From Candidatus Micrarchaeota archaeon (GTDB lineage Archaea > Micrarchaeota > Micrarchaeia > Anstonellales > Anstonellaceae): a stretch of 25,978 bases of DNA. Positions 11,350 through 19,019 of the stretch are shown piece by piece; within the stretch, counting starts at the first letter, position 1, and each line of letters starts with the position of its first letter. Both the position numbers and the translations under genes were made by a program. The notes beneath the pieces are model-generated. The model saw only the letters and a program-made list of their open reading frames with translations, made no database searches and was not told where the DNA came from. Location of the stretch: NCBI GenBank assembly GCA_026396335.1, contig JAPLWZ010000016.1, forward strand, positions 1-25,978. Direction: 5' to 3'.

Positions 11350-11500
11350 TATATCGCCTCCTAATATTGATTTGGTTGAATTTGACTAATATTAGACTAA
11401 AATTTACAGCCAGGATATAAAAATGTTTCCTAGTTGGCGGAAGCAAATTATGTTCGGAATTGGGGGAATTGTTAAAAGAAGATGCTGCCAATTTGCACCT

Positions 11501-12886
11501 ATGAAACTATTTCCAATACTGCTCCTTGCAGCCATGATTTCGATTTCGCTTCTTGCGCACAATGCAAGCGCAGGCTACACTGAAACACTTACAGTGCAAG
11601 TGTTTGACCAGGACTTCAGGCCAGTGGACGGGGCGCTCGTTTATGTGGAATACCAGCTTAACGGGGTGCAGGGCAACATAAAGACCAAGCCGCACCCGAC
11701 AGACTCCACCGGCTACTATACGCTTGTGTTCACCGACTACGAGCAGATAGATGCCTCGTTGGACCGGACATACACCCTTTTTGTAAAATACGGCGGCCAA
11801 CTCGAAAAGGCAATCCTCACGGCAACCGATGGCGAAAAGAGAGTATACACCATGAGAGTGGACTCGTATTATGCGTTTGTGAAAGTGCACGACCAGAAGG
11901 GGCACCCCATAGCCGCGGATGTCACAATAAGCGGGGACAATTTTGATGCGGTGCAGAGAAAAACTGACGAAAATGGAAACGTGGGGTTCCAGCTGCCGCC
12001 TGGAAGCTACACGGTGAAAACAGAGTACAACGGAGTCGCAAAAAACAAGGACTTCAAGCTTTCAGCAGACCAGGCAATTGACATTTTATTTGGCGTTTAT
12101 TCGCTTGACGTAAAGGTCACGGACGACAGGAAAAAGCCGCTTGATGCGACTGTGGAAATAGGAACGCAATCTGCGCAGACAGACGCAAGCGGCATTGCGC
12201 ATCTTGTGAACATATCAGATGAAACCCCGTCAGTTGTGATAAAGTACGCTGACAGGTACAAGACATACCGGCCGGACCTGTCGCTTGGAACGACGCTTGA
12301 CGCAGTAATCGACATGACAAAGCCGGTGATAAAGGACCTGCACAGCACGGTCTCTGGAAGCGGCGGCGCCACTGTGACATTCTTTGTTGAGGATTCCGGA
12401 TCTGCCGCAAGTGGTGTGGACACTGTTTCAGTAAGCTATACCGTTGCAGGCGTGGAAACGCCCGTTCCGGCCTATACTGTCGGCTACAATACATTCGAGG
12501 CAAAAATACCCGCACAGGAGCCCGGCACACTTGTGAGATACAGCGTGAAGGTGGCTGACAAGGATGGCAATGCGGCTGTTGGCATGGAAAGCTACCTGGT
12601 TCCGGAAAGCGCGGCGATAGCCCCAACTCCAGTGCCAAAGCCAGTTCCACCCATCATTCCAACTACAACGGGCGGAGTGCCCACTGAGTTCATGGTGATC
12701 CTGGTAGTTGCAGGCTTGCTGGTTGTCTATGCAGTGTTCTACTACTTGAAGAGGAAGAAAGAGGAAGACATGGGAAGGGCGCAGATGCCATCCTCTGCCC
12801 AGCCATCAGCAGGGATGCAGCCGCCCTCGCTTGGCAACAAGCCGCCGGAAAAGCCCAGCGCGCCAATCACGCCGCCGAAGATTTGA
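11501..12886 (+). CDS. Membrane-anchored surface protein with carboxypeptidase-regulatory-like beta-sandwich repeats
   Basis: Signal peptide MKLFPILLLAAMISISLLAHNASA; repeated V.V.D....P..a.V.I / TD..G motifs; Pro-rich stalk, TM helix, KRKK and a Pro-rich cytoplasmic tail. Confidence 0.78.
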   Translation: MKLFPILLLAAMISISLLAHNASAGYTETLTVQVFDQDFRPVDGALVYVEYQLNGVQGNIKTKPHPTDSTGYYTLVFTDYEQIDASLDRTYTLFVKYGGQLEKAILTATDGEKRVYTMRVDSYYAFVKVHDQKGHPIAADVTISGDNFDAVQRKTDENGNVGFQLPPGSYTVKTEYNGVAKNKDFKLSADQAIDILFGVYSLDVKVTDDRKKPLDATVEIGTQSAQTDASGIAHLVNISDETPSVVIKYADRYKTYRPDLSLGTTLDAVIDMTKPVIKDLHSTVSGSGGATVTFFVEDSGSAASGVDTVSVSYTVAGVETPVPAYTVGYNTFEAKIPAQEPGTLVRYSVKVADKDGNAAVGMESYLVPESAAIAPTPVPKPVPPIIPTTTGGVPTEFMVILVVAGLLVVYAVFYYLKRKKEEDMGRAQMPSSAQPSAGMQPPSLGNKPPEKPSAPITPPKI

Positions 12887-12896
12887 AAAAGAATTA

Positions 12897-12909
12897 GTGC
12901 AGGGAGGGA
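12897..12909. repeat. att site: 13-bp duplicate of the tRNA-Leu 3' end (GTGCAGGGAGGGA)
   Basis: Identical to 18211-18223. On the - strand it is followed by TAATTCTTTTTC, the expected position of the original tRNA terminator. Confidence 0.8.
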
Positions 12910-13012
12910 AACCCAAGGATGATGCTTGGGTCTGACTGGATTTTGAGAGCTAGTCTACTCACCGGCACGGCACTTTGGAGAGCTTTTTAATCTTTATATG
13001 GTTTAAAGCGGC

Positions 13013-15973
13013 ATGAAGTCCAACGACGAGATAAAAACCCTTATTCTAGAGCTTCACTCCAAGCTAAACAGGCTTCCCAACAAGGATTCCGAGACTGAAA
13101 AAAAGGCGGAAGAATACCTTAGCCATCTTTTCGGAGCGCTCGGCTGGGACTGGCTCAGCGCGGAGGTAATACCGCAAAAAAGAGTACGGAGCGGCGGGAA
13201 GACTCGGCGGGTTGATTACGCCCTTAAGCGAACTGGTAGGCTCAAGCCGGATTTTTACATAGAAGTAAAGAAATTCTCCGAGGACGTTTACAATCCAGAG
13301 CACACAAGGCAGGCGCTGGAATACGGCAAGAACAGCGGCATCCGCTGGGTGGTACTGACAAATTTCACTGCCTGGCGGGTCTTCAACTCTGACTATTTCG
13401 AACACCCAAACGACGCAGAACTATTCTCTGGCTTCAATCTTTTGGACGCGGCAGTAGACCCGGAGAAGTTCAACTGGCTCATGCTTTTCTCAAGGGAGCA
13501 GGGCGGGCCAGCGCTTGACGAATACGCCAAAAAGCACAAGAAATGGCGGGAAAGCGAAAGCGTGGAGGAGCTGCTCTCGGAGCAGTTCATCAACACAAGG
13601 AAGAGCCTTGCAAATGCCATAAGGGAGCAGAACCGGGAACTCTTTGACCCTGAGCCAACGGATGAGGACGTTTCCGTCGACTCCTGCGTGCAGCATATTC
13701 TTGACCGCCTGATTTTCTGCCGCATGCTTGAGGACAACGGGATAGGCGACGGGTTCCGCATGGAGCAGTCATATGAGGAGTGGAAGAACGACAAGCGGGT
13801 GCAGTTCTACCGCGAGCATCTCGCCGAGTTCTGGATTAAGAAGATGCGCAAGAGGTATGACAGCACAATATTCGACAGCCACAGAATAGACGGCCTGACG
13901 ATCAAGAACGAGGATTTCGTCCCTATCTTCGAGTCATTCTACGTAAACCCAAAGACAAAGCTCCGCTACCGTTTCGAGGCAATCCCGACAGACGTTCTTG
14001 GGCATGCATATGAAAACTACCTTTCCTACAAGCTTAAGCAGACTGCCAAAAGGACGGGGCTTGAAAAGGAAATATACAAACGCAAGCAGAGCGGCATCTA
14101 TTACACGCCTGAGTTCCTTGTGGACCATCTGGTAAGGGCGACCCTCGGCGAAAAGCTGAAAGCCTGCAAAACGCCCTCCGACGTGCTGAAACTGCGCGTG
14201 ATTGACCCTGCCTGCGGCTCAGGCACCTTCCTTGTGCGCGCATTCGAGGAATTCAAAAGCTGGTATCTTACTCATGAGAAAAACGGGGGCGGCGAGCAGG
14301 CAAAGCTTGACATAGAGAATGACTCCGGGCTGACCACCTTCCTTGACCGCGTGCTTGAAAGCTGCATACACGGCATTGACCTTGACCTCCACGCGGTGCG
14401 GCTGACGAGATTGAACCTATTTTTACGGGCAATCGACACGCCCAACCAATTGCCTCGCCTAAAAATACTGCACAAGAATTCCTTAGTATGGGACGACGAC
14501 CTGCCGCTGCCGTTCAAAATGGAGCGCGACTTCCCGCTCGTTGCAGAGCAGGGCGGCTTTGATGTTGTGATAGGCAACCCGCCATGGGAGAAGTGGAAGC
14601 CAGACTCGCAGGAATTCTTCGAGGAATTCCACGAGGGCTTCAAGAGCCTGCCTACTAAAGAGGCAAAGAAAGTCATAGATGAACTTCTGAAAACCAGAAT
14701 AGGCATCAAGAAGAAATGGGAAGACAAGCTGCGCGAATATGAAACATACTCAGAACTTTATCGCCGCAATTACCAGTTTCAGTCTGCTGAAGCAGCAGGG
14801 AGACAAGTTTCTGGCGACCTTGACCTTTACAAAGTATTTACAGAAAGGGCATACCAACTCCTCAAGCCCGGCGGCTCCGCAGGGCTCGTAATCCCAAGTG
14901 GCATCTACACGGACTTGGGAGCAAAGGGCTTGCGGACAATGCTGTTCGACCACTGCCAGATAAAGGAACTTTACTCGTTTGAAAACCGAAAGTTCGTGTT
15001 TCAGGACATTGACCAGCGCTACAAATTTGTGCTTCTGAAATTCGAGAAAGGTGGCAAGACAAAATCCTTCCCCTGCGCCTTCTTCCTTTACAGCGACGAG
15101 GACTTGAAGAAAGCGATTGAAGCGCCAACTGTTCTTGAGGTGGAGTTCATCAGGCGCTCTTCACCAACCTCATGGAGCGTGCTTGAAATCAAGAGCGAAA
15201 AAGATAAGGGGATAGTAGAAAAACTCCTCAAAAATCCGAAAATAGGTGATGACAGAGATAGTTCTTGGTGCATAAAAATCCAGAGTGCATTTCATATGAC
15301 CAGTGACAGCCACCTTTTCCGCGAAGGAAAGCTTGGCGGAATCCCTCTGCTTGAAGGGAAGAACATAGAACATTTCACACATCAGTGGAAAGACAATCCG
15401 ACTCCACAATACACTATGGATGAGAAAGATGTTTATGCAAACCTCAAGACTGAGAATGTTTATCACAAGGGCTACTGGATGGCGTATCGTCTTATTGCAA
15501 GCTCTACGAATTATCGTACTTTCATTTCGACGATTGTTCCGCCCGGTTATGTTTGTGGGCATTCAATTGCTATTGTAAGGATGGAAAATTTGAAGGAACT
15601 TTGCTACCTTTGTGGGGTGATGAATAGCTTTGTGATTGACTATTTTATGCGTCAAAAGGTTAGTACAAACGTAACAATGTTCAACTTCCTTGAAACCCCT
15701 ATCCCGCGCATCTCATCCGGCAAGCTGTTTGACGAAATCGTAAAGAAGACCGCGCAGCTTGTGGCAATCACTCCTGAGTTCGACCAGCTCAAGAAGGAAA
15801 TTGGCATCTCCGCAGGCCTGAAAGATGAGAACGACAGGCTGCTGGCACGCGCACAGCTTGACGTGGCTGTTGCCAAGCTCTACGGCATCACAAAGGAGGA
15901 GCTTGCCTACATTTTGGAGAAGTTCCCGAAGGTGGATGCGAAACAGAAGGAGCTTGTGCTGAGGGAATATTGA
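13013..15973 (+). CDS. Fused type IIG/IIL restriction-modification enzyme (PD-(D/E)xK nuclease + N6-adenine methyltransferase + target recognition domain)
   Basis: N-terminal RVDYAL...FYIEVKK and WVVLTNF; GIYYTPEFLV; motif I VIDPACGSGTFL; motif IV VVIGNPPW; C-terminal TRD-like region ending ARAQLDVAVAKLYGIT.EEL. Confidence 0.9.
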   Translation: MKSNDEIKTLILELHSKLNRLPNKDSETEKKAEEYLSHLFGALGWDWLSAEVIPQKRVRSGGKTRRVDYALKRTGRLKPDFYIEVKKFSEDVYNPEHTRQALEYGKNSGIRWVVLTNFTAWRVFNSDYFEHPNDAELFSGFNLLDAAVDPEKFNWLMLFSREQGGPALDEYAKKHKKWRESESVEELLSEQFINTRKSLANAIREQNRELFDPEPTDEDVSVDSCVQHILDRLIFCRMLEDNGIGDGFRMEQSYEEWKNDKRVQFYREHLAEFWIKKMRKRYDSTIFDSHRIDGLTIKNEDFVPIFESFYVNPKTKLRYRFEAIPTDVLGHAYENYLSYKLKQTAKRTGLEKEIYKRKQSGIYYTPEFLVDHLVRATLGEKLKACKTPSDVLKLRVIDPACGSGTFLVRAFEEFKSWYLTHEKNGGGEQAKLDIENDSGLTTFLDRVLESCIHGIDLDLHAVRLTRLNLFLRAIDTPNQLPRLKILHKNSLVWDDDLPLPFKMERDFPLVAEQGGFDVVIGNPPWEKWKPDSQEFFEEFHEGFKSLPTKEAKKVIDELLKTRIGIKKKWEDKLREYETYSELYRRNYQFQSAEAAGRQVSGDLDLYKVFTERAYQLLKPGGSAGLVIPSGIYTDLGAKGLRTMLFDHCQIKELYSFENRKFVFQDIDQRYKFVLLKFEKGGKTKSFPCAFFLYSDEDLKKAIEAPTVLEVEFIRRSSPTSWSVLEIKSEKDKGIVEKLLKNPKIGDDRDSSWCIKIQSAFHMTSDSHLFREGKLGGIPLLEGKNIEHFTHQWKDNPTPQYTMDEKDVYANLKTENVYHKGYWMAYRLIASSTNYRTFISTIVPPGYVCGHSIAIVRMENLKELCYLCGVMNSFVIDYFMRQKVSTNVTMFNFLETPIPRISSGKLFDEIVKKTAQLVAITPEFDQLKKEIGISAGLKDENDRLLARAQLDVAVAKLYGITKEELAYILEKFPKVDAKQKELVLREY

Positions 15974-15990
15974 AATTTGAGAAGGCGAGT

Positions 15991-16332
15991 ATGATGTCTG
16001 ATCTTTGGATCACTTTCGTCCCAGATATTTACCTAAAGATGCTTCCAGCGCTATCACTAGTCGCTATAGGGTGGATGGTTGAAAAGCAAGTTGTTGGCCG
16101 AGTGACTACTTTTGCCAACGGTCTCGCAATCAATCTACACGTCTTACTTTTAACCAGCCCGCCAATGTGGTTTATCTGGTATGCAAATATAGGTTTTATT
16201 ATGGGGATTATTGGTATCTTTGCATATGGAAGCAGAACAAGCCTAAGTGGAACACTTGGCAAAATATACTACACGTTAAGCTGGGCGTATTGTTCCATCT
16301 TTGTTGGTTTCTTAATACTCGTCATTCATTAA
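15991..16332 (+). CDS. Small hypothetical integral membrane protein (~113 aa, about 4 TM helices)
   Basis: Four hydrophobic stretches; 17 nt downstream of and co-oriented with the R-M gene; ~35-43% GC in hand-counted lines. Confidence 0.65.
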   Translation: MMSDLWITFVPDIYLKMLPALSLVAIGWMVEKQVVGRVTTFANGLAINLHVLLLTSPPMWFIWYANIGFIMGIIGIFAYGSRTSLSGTLGKIYYTLSWAYCSIFVGFLILVIH

Positions 16333-16387
16333 CAACTGAGTATGGACACTTTATGAAAATAGTTTACCCCTAATTTTTCTCGCATTT

Positions 16388-16700
16388 TAAGCGGTGTTCA
16401 CCTGCCTTAAATCTATTTGGTTACATCATTTCGCTTACTCTCGCGCTTAATTTTTCCTGTAACATGCAAAACCTTGACAGTCGAAGAAAGATGCGCTTAT
16501 TCTGCGCTTAAAAGACGGTTGTGGCGTCCAAATGCGCTTAATTCTCAAGCTTTGCTCCCAGATAATATTTGCCTGCGCTCTCGCTTATTTTCGATTGAGC
16601 GTAAAGTTGAGCGTAATTTCTGGCTGCGCAAAAATTTCAGAGAGCTTAGCAAAAATTGAGCGTAAAACTGAGCGTAAATGCATGTTCTGGCTGCCAGAAC
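16388..16700. repeat. Array of 11 TRAGCG/CGCTYA short repeats in ordered pairs
   Basis: TAAGCG at 16388; CGCTTA at 16432, 16444, 16494, 16505, 16535, 16582; TGAGCGTAA at 16596, 16608, 16657, 16669. Confidence 0.85.
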
Positions 16701-16742
16701 AGCCTACTTCGTTGTTTTGTGTTTCTGAGAGTATTGTCTGTT

Positions 16743-16887
16743 ATTGCGCAGCTCCGCAGGTCATGTATACTGGAGCCGAAAGCTGCGCAAAGAACGGAGT
16801 TTGGATATGCAGTTCCAAGCAAGAATCAACGTTTGAGCTGCGGCAAGAAGTTTATATACGATTGCGCAGCTCCGCCTAGCTGCGCAA
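16743..16887. repeat. Two inverted-repeat pairs with identical 10-bp arms (TTGCGCAGCT / AGCTGCGCAA)
   Basis: Arms at 16744-16753/16781-16790 (27-nt spacer) and 16862-16871/16878-16887 (6-nt spacer); 15-bp direct repeat ATTGCGCAGCTCCGC at 16743 and 16861. Confidence 0.85.
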
Positions 16888-16890
16888 CTC

Positions 16891-16906
16891 AAAAAAAGAA
16901 AAGAAA
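16891..16906 (-). terminator. Oligo-T terminator of the integrase gene
   Basis: TTTCTTTTCTTTTTTT on - immediately after the integrase stop. Confidence 0.55.
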
Positions 16907-18103
16907 TTACTCCAGCAATTCCTTGTCCAGCCCCATTTCCAGCATTTTCTTCACGAGCAATGCCTTCACTTCTGGGTCCTGAATCAAAACGTTCATCATG
17001 CCGTTCGCCGCCTTGTTGGGGTCGTTGAGCACAAGCCGCTCATCGAAGGGGTTGCCGCACTTGCCACAGAAGGACTGTGTTGGGGAATTTCTCTCCTTGC
17101 AGCGGGAGCATATTTTGATGTCGAGTTTTGGCTCTTTTTCTATTGGCTTGTCCTTCATGGAATACATTTGAAGAAGTGTGGAATCAACGTCCCTGCCGGA
17201 CAAATGAACGTAAGTCGCAGCCATATCGCTGCCCTGCGTCCATCCAAAATATTCCTTCATTTGTGCTTCGGTCAATTTTGAAGCTAACGAGGTTGCTCGG
17301 CTGTGCCTGAACAGGTGAGGATAAATTCTCTTTTTTATGCCGCTTACCTTGCTTGCTCGCCTCAACATGGCGAGTATTGAGGGGTAGGAGCAGGGCACAG
17401 GTTTGTAGCGGGCAAGCCTCGCAGGCCATAAAGGGGCGTCAGGGTTGTCTTTGTCCGGGTGTTCCTGAAGCCATTGCCCCAACACCTGGGCACTTGCAAT
17501 TATCCTTACTCTCCTGCTGCCTGTCTTGCCATTGACAATGAGCACAACTCCGTAATTGTCGAACTGGACGTTCCTGAGCTTGAGATAGAGCAATTCACCT
17601 ATCCTGCATCCTGACTCGTATAATGCCAAAATAAGCGCCTTGTCGCGTGGATTTGTGGTGGAGTTGGCGAGCTTCTGCGTCTCCTCAATTGTCAGCAATT
17701 CCTCAGGCAGCTTGTGCGCCTTGTTGCCAATCTTTGGCTTGAGCCATTTGATTACTTTTGGAAAATCCTCGTCCTTGCCAAGAAGCCACTTGTAGAACAT
17801 TTTGAGGACGACTTTGAAGTCGTAACGGGTGTATTCCGAATAATTTTTGGCGTCAATTTCAGTAACCAGCCGGATTATGTCGGTCTTTGTCGCAGTCGAG
17901 AAATCCTTGTTGAGCCACTGCGCCAGAAAGCGCATGCAATACATGCATTTTACGACGCGAAGTTTGCCCGAGCCTTTCGCAAGTCTCATCCGTGCGAAGT
18001 TCTCAATCTGCTTTTTTGTTTTCGCTGCAAGGGATGAAGCCTTCAGTATGGCTATCGCTTTCTCGAAGTCGGTTTGCGATTTGTACATCACGTATTCGTT
18101 CAT
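16907..18103 (-). CDS. Tyrosine recombinase/integrase with C-terminal zinc ribbon
   Basis: Catalytic residues GCRIGEL (R), KTG (K), HLFRHSR (HxxR), GW, YVH (Y); CSRC...FCGKCG ribbon. Start at MNEYV (18103) is supported by a TATA box 24-31 nt upstream. Confidence 0.93.
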   Translation of the reverse strand: MNEYVMYKSQTDFEKAIAILKASSLAAKTKKQIENFARMRLAKGSGKLRVVKCMYCMRFLAQWLNKDFSTATKTDIIRLVTEIDAKNYSEYTRYDFKVVLKMFYKWLLGKDEDFPKVIKWLKPKIGNKAHKLPEELLTIEETQKLANSTTNPRDKALILALYESGCRIGELLYLKLRNVQFDNYGVVLIVNGKTGSRRVRIIASAQVLGQWLQEHPDKDNPDAPLWPARLARYKPVPCSYPSILAMLRRASKVSGIKKRIYPHLFRHSRATSLASKLTEAQMKEYFGWTQGSDMAATYVHLSGRDVDSTLLQMYSMKDKPIEKEPKLDIKICSRCKERNSPTQSFCGKCGNPFDERLVLNDPNKAANGMMNVLIQDPEVKALLVKKMLEMGLDKELLE

Positions 18104-18126
18104 GATCCCTGTCCTGCTTGACCTTC

Positions 18127-18176
18127 TATATATAGCTTGACGAGACACGCGACGAGGTGCGACTCAGGTGCGTGTC
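18127..18176 (-). promoter_or_regulatory. Integrase promoter (TATATATA, 18127-18134) with upstream inverted and direct repeats
   Basis: TATA at canonical distance; GACACGC (18144-18150)/GCGTGTC (18170-18176) inverted pair enclosing two AGGTGCG copies (18155, 18166). Confidence 0.5.
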
Positions 18177-18210
18177 GAGGTCCAGCGGTAGGACTAGTGC
18201 ATCATACAAG

Positions 18211-18223
18211 GTGCAGGGAGGGA
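18211..18223. repeat. att site overlapping the tRNA-Leu 3' end
   Basis: GTGCAGGGAGGGA, identical to 12897-12909. Confidence 0.8.
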
Positions 18224-18333
18224 GATTCGAACTCCCGAAGACCTAAGTCACCAGATTGCTTACTGCGCAATTGCAATTAAGCAAGAGCGGGATCTTGAGT
18301 CTGGCGCATTAAACCGGGCTCTGCCATCCCTGC
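18212..18333 (-). tRNA. tRNA-Leu(CAA) with a 37-nt intron at position 37/38; CCA not fully encoded
   Basis: GCAGGGA/TCCCTGC acceptor stem, GCA/TGC D stem, CCAGA/TCTGG anticodon stem with loop CT-CAA-G|A, long variable arm GAC-TTAG-GTC, GGGAG-TTCGAAT-CTCCC T arm, discriminator A; 85 nt mature. Confidence 0.93.
18257..18293 (-). other. tRNA intron (37 nt)
   Basis: Removing it restores the 7-nt anticodon loop CUCAAGA; the boundary is ambiguous by 1 nt from sequence alone. Confidence 0.85.
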
Positions 18334-18362: not shown

Positions 18363-18407
18363 GGATGGCAGGTATTTCACGAAGTGAAATTTGACTGCCA
18401 TCCCTGC
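18363..18407. repeat. Hairpin containing a 13-bp duplicate of the tRNA 5' end and a 9-nt antisense copy
   Basis: 18395-18407 CTGCCATCCCTGC equals 18321-18333; GGATGGCAG (18363-18371) is its inverted partner; inner stem ATTTCAC-GAA-GTGAAAT (18374-18390). Confidence 0.85.
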
Positions 18408-18452
18408 GTAAAACTAGGAGAAGGATCTGCGTTTAATGGTGGCGGAAATACA

Positions 18453-19019
18453 CTACTTTTTCACTATTTTCAAGAAGTTCGCGTATATTTCGCTTCCGTG
18501 CTCGCTGTACTCCACTTCAGGATGGAACAGGCAGCCGTAAACCGGGCGCGAGAGGGACTTGAATGCGTGGTTGGTGACATCCTTCGAGTGCGCGAGCACC
18601 TTGAAGCCGGGCGTGTCCACCACTTCGTCGTTGTGCGACGCCCATACGCTGAATTTGTCAGGCAGGCCTTCGAAAAGCTCGTCATGGTCGTCTATTATGA
18701 GCTCAACTTTTCCGTATTCGGGGCCTTTTGCAGGCTGCGCCTTGCCGCCGAAGTGCAAGCCAATGAACTGCTGCCCTGCGCAGATGCCCATTATTGGTCC
18801 CTGGAATTTTTCCAGGAACTTGCGCGAGTTTCCCGTCTGCTTTGTGTCGCCCAATCCAATCCTTATCGCGCCGCCTGAGAAGATGAGTGCGTCTGCTGAG
18901 AGAATGTTCTTTACAGGCGTAGTGACCGGAATTATTTGCGACTCCACGTCCAAGTACTTGAGAGTGCGGTGTATGCGGTGCGTCCACTGCGAGCCGAAAT
19001 CAACGATAAGGACTTTCAT
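18453..19019 (-). CDS. guaAA: GMP synthase, glutamine amidotransferase subunit A
   Basis: IVDFGSQWTHRI, GICAGQQ (catalytic Cys), SHNDEV, FHPEV (His-Glu); adjacent to subunit B. Confidence 0.93.
   Translation of the reverse strand: MKVLIVDFGSQWTHRIHRTLKYLDVESQIIPVTTPVKNILSADALIFSGGAIRIGLGDTKQTGNSRKFLEKFQGPIMGICAGQQFIGLHFGGKAQPAKGPEYGKVELIIDDHDELFEGLPDKFSVWASHNDEVVDTPGFKVLAHSKDVTNHAFKSLSRPVYGCLFHPEVEYSEHGSEIYANFLKIVKK

Follow-up and report, generated by a model that had tools for sequence, protein, structure and literature searches.

The stretch of DNA analysed here (the window) comprises 25,978 nucleotides and represents contig C144 of the Candidatus Micrarchaeota metagenome-assembled genome (MAG) G000, which totals 1.06 Mb in 180 contigs and is 75% complete. 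Between positions 12897 and 18223 the window carries a compact unit that begins and ends with a copy of the 3' end of a tRNA-Leu(CAA) gene. It holds a predicted type IIG restriction-modification (R-M) enzyme, a small membrane open reading frame (ORF), a repeat-rich non-coding region and a tyrosine integrase. This unit is very probably a cryptic integrative element of 5314 bp that integrated itself at the 3' end of the tRNA gene. A first-pass annotation, made from the letters alone, had already proposed a self-integrating R-M element in tRNA-Leu, and the proposal is borne out by empty loci in relatives, a co-varying repeat in the related genome G005, conserved attachment (att) arms, tandem stacks and a recombination junction in the metagenome contig L294.

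The element is delimited by the 13-mer GTGCAGGGAGGGA, which occurs in exactly two copies in the window. The distal att core (attR, 12897-12909, minus strand) is a copy of the tRNA-Leu 3' end, at which the homology to the G005 element and to L294 begins, and the proximal core (attL, 18211-18223, minus strand) forms the functional 3' end of the tRNA. If one mismatch is permitted there are still only two matches, against 0.04 expected from shuffled sequences, and the unit length (18211 minus 12897) is 5314 bp; the repeat, its position and the length of the unit are thereby as first annotated. The target tRNA lies at 18212-18333 on the minus strand and contains a 37-nt intron (approximately 18259-18295) according to ARAGORN with introns allowed, while Rfam matches the same interval with 44.3 bits (E 3.4e-7) and a 40-nt insert in the anticodon loop; orthologs are present in relatives. 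Such an intron-bearing tRNA is invisible to ARAGORN at default settings and to the Rfam gathering threshold, and its detection needs the introns-allowed mode and an Rfam E-value threshold. ARAGORN assigns the label Val(cac), but a variable arm of this length and an anticodon loop reading CUCAAGA identify the tRNA as Leu(CAA), whose intron occupies the canonical position 37/38. The repeat spans four of the five bases of the T-stem 3' strand, the seven-base acceptor 3' strand, the discriminator A and one further base, in agreement with the earlier assignment to the T-stem, acceptor and discriminator of an intron-containing tRNA-Leu. On the tRNA strand, the distal core is followed by TAATTCTTTTTCA, which is the T-rich tract described before.

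Eight same-genus genomes (G012, G009, G014, G016, G004, G002, G019 and G010) carry the tRNA-Leu without any insert, in the conserved gene order surface-protein ortholog, tRNA-Leu(CAA), GATase, GMP-synthase. The first-pass annotation had suggested looking for an empty tRNA-Leu locus beside the surface-protein ortholog (window gene 11423-12886); all eight have such a locus, with the tRNA in the opposite orientation. G019 and G012 are closer to the window genome than G005 is (by guaA identity) and yet are empty; therefore integration or excision took place after the lineages had split. In G005, contig C50 (5288 bp) harbours the same element, with amino acid identities of 86.5% for the integrase and 68% for the R-M enzyme, compared with 75-79% for the flanking housekeeping proteins. 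The G005 element is bounded by a 14-nt repeat that matches the acceptor stem of its own species, i.e. the repeat co-varies with the tRNA, and its DNA homology to the window extends from 12898 to inside the tRNA. The only sequence common to the G005 contigs C32 and C50 is the core plus the P' arm (39 nt), by which a joining of the two contigs was rejected and from which it follows that C32 ends in a different att site. C32 itself carries att cores downstream of GATase in canonical orientation; on this contig, two reverse-complement att cores lie 128 nt apart at L003:4031-4171, 1 kb downstream of GATase. These features indicate that C32 is part of a composite element stack which was split into contigs by assembly.

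Given these comparisons, it is extremely improbable that the genes are native to the locus and that the 13-mer or its orientation is accidental or an artefact of assembly. A repeat of 13 bp is short and a MAG in 180 contigs is fragmented, but only 0.04 matches are expected by chance, and empty sites, the co-varying repeat of G005 and the conserved arms all have to be accounted for. In addition, both junctions of the element are bridged by independent Logan contigs from the runs X1, X2 and X4, and no inverted repeat is of a length that could have misled the assembly.

On its element side each core is accompanied by a characteristic arm. The P' arm beside the distal core (12911-12931) is an imperfect 7-bp inverted repeat with a 7-nt spacer that resembles a T-arm, and the P arm beside the proximal core (18149-18210) is kept at this position both by related loci and by tandem junctions. 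Across the integrase family the P' side consists of an imperfect 7-bp inverted repeat around CATCATC and the P side of an arm of the type CTTGTATSATGCACTAG. The P' arm is kept beside the core at 17 distinct att sites of related loci, with changes in the stem partly compensated; a 16-base P' arm pattern searched against genome contigs gave mostly chance matches in bacteria. As the T-arm belongs to the tRNA itself in attL and the palindrome belongs to the element in attR, strand exchange must be confined to the 13 bp that the two sites have in common, on the 3' side of either palindrome. Two orthologous tRNA-Leu(CAA) genes on metagenome contigs (L240:7700-7870 and L249:1890-2080) have a second insert in the T-loop, just 5' of the att core, and elements are integrated at both of them despite this insert.

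The junction expected from recombination between the two cores is found in L294, a metagenome contig of 7556 nt with 89-91% DNA identity to the window element. It aligns to positions 15970-12897 and then directly to 18223-17466, and the overlap between both alignments is the identical 13-bp core; the contig thus runs through R-M gene, P' arm, core, P arm and integrase, exactly as predicted for a 12897/18223 junction. L294 opens within the integrase gene at codon 279 and breaks off at codon 227 of that gene, with 51 codons absent, and represents either a circle of about 7.7 kb opened in the integrase gene or head-to-tail copies. Circle or tandem, it is a recombination product at exactly the predicted site. 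The circle junction that had been suggested as a check is accordingly present in L294 (about 90% identical) and in the tandem stacks described below, but is negative for this very copy in the contigs of four runs. In X1 and X6 there are contigs that follow the window through core and P' arm and part from it beyond that point (loose ends at window positions 12936 and 12940); therefore sibling elements with the same att arm coexist in these communities.

The integrase gene (16907-18103, minus strand) encodes 398 amino acids from the ATG at 18103, with the ORF open from a GTG at 18148 and a TATA-like box at 18127-18135. The protein matches Pfam Phage_integrase (1.6e-17), possesses the complete catalytic set of R, K, HxxR, W and Y, and ends in a C-terminal CxxC..CxxC zinc ribbon. 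The closest solved structures are those of archaeal XerA, with a low score. Identity as an archaeal XerA chromosome-dimer resolvase was rejected, as the NCBIfam XerA equivalog model gives 89.7 bits at a cut-off of 220 and G000 encodes five paralogous integrases rather than a single housekeeping copy. All five paralogs score below the XerA cut-off and adjoin tRNAs or lie on short contigs; tRNA-Thr and tRNA-Ala are the neighbours of others in this set. A partitioning integrase of the SSV1 type was likewise rejected, since the core is placed 108 nt upstream of the start codon and leaves the ORF unbroken. Because the att site is located outside the gene, the integrase gene stays intact after integration. 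Archaeal integrases are reportedly divided, in a classification by She et al., into the pNOB8 type (non-partitioning) and the SSV1 type. The window integrase resembles the pNOB8-type (type II) enzymes, whose genes likewise stay intact with the att site outside, in att layout.

GTDB-representative genomes yielded 172 stretches with relatives of this integrase and metagenomes 310, and none was found in IMG/VR. The GTDB stretches belong almost exclusively to Micrarchaeota and include the complete genome of Ca. Fermentimicrarchaeum limneticum, in keeping with the DPANN host claimed in the first-pass annotation. ARAGORN detects a tRNA-Leu (any anticodon) directly upstream and on the same strand at no fewer than 17 related integrase loci, and at five related loci repeats of the tRNA end, 12-19 nt long, delimit elements of 3.3-6.5 kb.

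The largest gene (13013-15973, plus strand) encodes a protein of 986 amino acids that would unite nuclease, methyltransferase and specificity functions in one chain. PADLOC assigns it to REase_MTase_IIG (2.4e-64), and Pfam matches are Eco57I (4.7e-24), N6_Mtase (8.7e-18) and, weakly, TaqI_C (2.2e-4). With intact motifs for the nuclease (D68..E84-x-K86) and the methyltransferase (DPACGSG at 398, NPPW at 522), the protein is classed as a type IIG enzyme with a predicted PD-(D/E)xK nuclease activity and a predicted gamma-class N6-adenine methyltransferase activity. An AT-rich promoter-like stretch (12984-12999) accompanies the gene in other genomes. Homologs with 83% amino acid identity occur in another genus and in another family of the order (L226 in G054; L227/L231 in G092), where neither such an integrase nor a tRNA is found within 10 kb and only the R-M promoter region is common. 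The higher identity of these homologs, 83% versus 68% in the same-genus G005, points to horizontal transfer of the R-M gene together with its promoter.

The small membrane ORF (15991-16332, plus strand) encodes 113 amino acids from its ATG, or 120 amino acids from an alternative upstream TTG that overlaps the R-M stop codon. It matches no family in Pfam, NCBIfam, PHROGs or PADLOC, and homologs (56-65% identity) were found in two of 175 other genomes of the order. An obligate partnership with the R-M enzyme is not supported, because the ORF is not near the closest R-M homologs (83%, 72% and 69% amino acid identity). The G005 element has an unrelated small ORF at the same position, and the ORF belongs to the variable cargo. 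Searches of Pfam, NCBIfam, PHROGs and PADLOC detected no replication, transfer or conjugation, excisionase, or capsid or packaging family in the element, so that its content was correctly described at first sight as three genes plus a repeat-rich region.

That region had been taken for a spacer, a view which has to be abandoned. The roughly 575 nt between the small membrane ORF and the integrase (16333-16906) contain no conserved ORF, and their larger part (16430-16906) is a conserved non-coding backbone module of about 0.5 kb between convergent gene ends. Its DNA identity to G005 is 83%, versus 69% for the R-M gene. The module contains paired 9-mers (TTAMGCKCA) at a spacing of 11-12 nt, GCCAGAAC boxes, and inverted GAGCTGCGCAA repeats whose loops are TATA-like. 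Immediately behind the integrase, such a module is also present in L025/L239, L032, L033 (twice) and L043/L265/L267, in the last group beside integrases that are only 69% identical. No similar motif cluster was found elsewhere in the G000 contigs, and mimicry of the host origin is unsupported for lack of such a second cluster. In the same genome, a piece of some 100 nt from the module's palindrome part recurs with 85% identity at C120:2299-2842 (L320), behind a paralogous integrase of 46% identity; this match suggests an exchange of modules between elements or a common host factor. When the integrase-proximal part of the module was checked for structured RNA, two long conserved inverted repeats were seen with compensatory change in 6 of 33 pairs and a covariation contribution of only -0.8 kcal/mol, so that the case for an RNA structure is weak.

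In most other family members, including the nearest relatives L294 and L238, the integrase is followed by an ORF of 275-290 amino acids (e.g. L294:1006-1830 and L027:9203-10063). This partner ORF encodes N-terminal helices and a conserved C-terminal domain (E..GPD..DVETGK) and belongs to no Pfam family; a model built from it matches PD-(D/E)xK nucleases alone, and weakly. The window element lacks the partner ORF and has the repeat module at exactly its position. One might accordingly regard the element as a non-autonomous derivative that lost its partner gene and needs sibling elements for excision, replication or transfer, with the module acting in cis. The weak nuclease resemblance of the partner, the position of the module and the partner gene directly after the integrases of L294 and L238 (94-97% amino acid identity) and of most of the family would fit this idea. 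The module type is old, however, being conserved across integrases of only 69% identity, and it is present in elements bounded by direct repeats and in tandem stacks, where it appears able to propagate. Moreover, no partner homolog was found in G000 (75% complete), and the repeat motifs do not form arrays in partner-bearing elements. We therefore consider a non-autonomous derivative unlikely.

A further explanation would be an integrative mini-plasmid that also exists as a free 5.3-kb circle, in which the module acts as an iteron origin served by host proteins or by the integrase. The 9-mers of each direct pair are separated by roughly one turn of the helix and lie where the window is richest in AT, in the gap between the converging genes; the module is better conserved than coding DNA, and L294 may be a circle. 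Nevertheless, read depth in X1 is about 20x and flat across element and flanks, with no sign of extra copies; G000 has no motif cluster marking a host origin, the element has no initiator gene, and L294 does without the module. A mini-plasmid is highly unlikely on these grounds. It is also distinctly unlikely, if somewhat less so, that integrase and 0.5-kb module together make up a complete, undescribed mini-element backbone of DPANN archaea, in which the array would serve as an origin or partition site to which host proteins or the integrase itself are drawn, or as a cis handle for siblings that possess the partner. If the module were such a handle for partner-encoding siblings, a two-tier, satellite-like system would operate in symbiont genomes of 1 Mb.

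The orientation of the tRNA and the element differs from that in relatives, a point missed by the first-pass annotation. The block is flanked by the surface-protein gene on one side and the GATase gene on the other. In same-genus relatives the tRNA reaches the GATase stop codon with its 3' end and has its promoter on the side of the surface-protein gene, and the occupied sites L240 and L249 keep this orientation, with the elements between tRNA and GATase. The window shows the reverse order: a distance of 10 nt separates the surface-protein stop codon from the distal core, and the tRNA with its TATA box and upstream hairpin (18363-18407, minus strand) adjoins GATase. Compared with the eight relatives, the whole block (native tRNA upstream region, tRNA and element) is thus turned round between its neighbouring genes. 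The inverted orientation is confirmed by the contigs of X1, X2 and X4 and is not an assembly artefact, because the inverted repeats here are too short to deceive a k-mer assembler. At the left junction of the inverted block (12884-12899), 8+5 bases interrupted by a 3-nt gap recur in inverted orientation at the GATase stop codon (18451-18463); at p ~0.04 for random window pairs, an inversion via this similarity of the block ends is only suggestive. An inversion mediated by the integrase, with crossover in the seven-base acceptor complement of the tRNA 5' stub in the upstream hairpin, was rejected, as the stub retains its native TTTTAC upstream flank and the right junction is therefore not the one that this model predicts. 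An ancestral GATase with an extra codon was also considered and is not needed, since GATase ends at the same residue in all relatives. After the inversion attL and attR are still in direct orientation, and therefore excision is possible.

Taken together, the proposed course of events is as follows. Very probably, the element's own tyrosine integrase recombined the 13-bp core of the element, flanked by the P' and P arms, with the identical 13 bp of the host tRNA-Leu(CAA) 3' end. Element DNA thereby restored the tRNA, whose original 3' end was displaced and is now 5.3 kb away. Integrase and 0.5-kb repeat module constitute the backbone, and the type IIG R-M gene with its own promoter plus the small membrane ORF the cargo. 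The R-M enzyme may protect the host from foreign DNA, and post-segregational killing may stabilise the element. For its movement between cells the element may rely on a helper or on passive DNA transfer, as proposed in the first-pass annotation. The block of tRNA upstream region, tRNA and element would have been inverted between the neighbouring genes either before or after integration.

Several points weigh against this scenario. The activities of R-M enzyme and integrase are predicted from their sequences, and L294 could be a tandem and not a circle, as both of its ends lie inside the integrase gene. Neither the excised circle nor the empty-site junction of this copy occurs in the contigs of X1, X2, X4 and X6, although contigs drop rare forms. 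The partner gene of L294 and L238 is missing from this copy, which might hence be non-autonomous, and the orientation unlike that of the relatives requires one extra rearrangement in the history of the locus. Alternatively, the element could have entered as described and have since become an immobile relic, retained for the R-M gene alone. Such a relic, for which the absence of excision products from the contigs of four runs, the same arrangement across samples of different studies and the inversion of the block may be cited, is unlikely but by no means negligible. Against a relic stand the identical cores, the conserved arms, the intact integrase with its promoter and the direct orientation of the att sites. 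A self-integrated cryptic integrative element thus remains our preferred interpretation.

In the wider family, P' arm-core-P arm junctions occur in tandem stacks in L033, L030, L032, L025 and L240. L033 comprises three units of 2.55, 3.7 and 2.2 kb, and integrase-less units bounded by the same att cores are found as its third unit and as the second unit of L025. With members as small as 2.2-2.5 kb, the family does not support the designation of the window element as minimal. A survey of the genes beside homologous integrases, as proposed at the outset, revealed cargo that varies even between close integrases and includes thioredoxin-like membrane proteins, a 1424-aa beta-helix protein, an HNH nuclease, transporters and an MscS channel; in Ca. 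Fermentimicrarchaeum it consists of another Eco57I-type R-M enzyme and an EVE protein. In a Micrarchaeota MAG (L039:5274-6588), a reverse transcriptase (RVT_1, 4.5e-17) has as its neighbour an RT-16 RNA that scores 75 bits in Rfam against a gathering score of 50, a cargo that is retron-like by these sequence matches.

Cryptic integrated elements (CIEs) were described in Thaumarchaeota; in archaea they range from 2.6 to 98 kb, have the integrase as their sole constant gene, target tRNAs and frequently carry R-M cargo (Krupovic et al. 2019, PMC6563490). The window element fits this class, with which it shares a XerC/D-type tyrosine integrase, a tRNA site, R-M cargo, the lack of recognisable virion and conjugation genes and, as is often the case in CIEs, of recognisable replication genes. 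Its family differs from CIEs by its occurrence in Micrarchaeota, its specificity for tRNA-Leu, the C-terminal zinc ribbon of the integrase and a second backbone part, which is either the repeat module or the nuclease-like partner gene. Tycheposons of Prochlorococcus are usually 10-20 kb in size and possess primase and helicase as replication hallmark genes (Hackl et al., bioRxiv 10.1101/2020.12.28.424599; Cell 2023). Like these, the window family combines streamlined genomes, a tyrosine integrase tied to one tRNA, partial tRNA copies between successive integrations and modular cargo; unlike in the bacterial tycheposons, no primase/helicase or polymerase family is recognised in the window element by Pfam, NCBIfam or PHROGs. 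Bacteria also harbour cis-mobilizable elements, and tandem accretion takes place at att sites. The integrase-less units with the same cores in relatives are comparable to such elements, whereas the window element has its own integrase. The kind of element and its mechanism are textbook cases. No description of this Micrarchaeota family was found in the literature.

The interest of the locus lies in the host lineage, in the very small backbone and in the unexplained repeat module. DPANN archaea have tiny genomes and depend on hosts, and little of their mobile DNA has been charted. As empty sites, the sister copy and an attP junction are all available for it, the locus represents a cleanly delimited case of a widespread family of tRNA-Leu mini-elements in Micrarchaeota, which would shuttle single defence or membrane genes such as R-M systems, a retron-like reverse transcriptase, transporters and a giant surface protein. 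Our results also suggest that reduced genomes still trade defence genes by site-specific integration, and the well-defined att sites together with the small integrase make the system suited to biochemistry.

Two further features of the locus should be added. The GC content is 0.42-0.47 in the right half of the element versus 0.50-0.55 in the flanks, a contrast that speaks for an inserted element. The hairpin in the native upstream region of the tRNA repeats 13 nt of the tRNA 5' end without a mismatch (18395-18407); this copy sits just upstream of the TATA box of the tRNA, and the same arrangement is seen in G019. In G014 a 72-nt unit consisting of promoter, tRNA 5' stub and hairpin is present in three tandem copies upstream of the tRNA.

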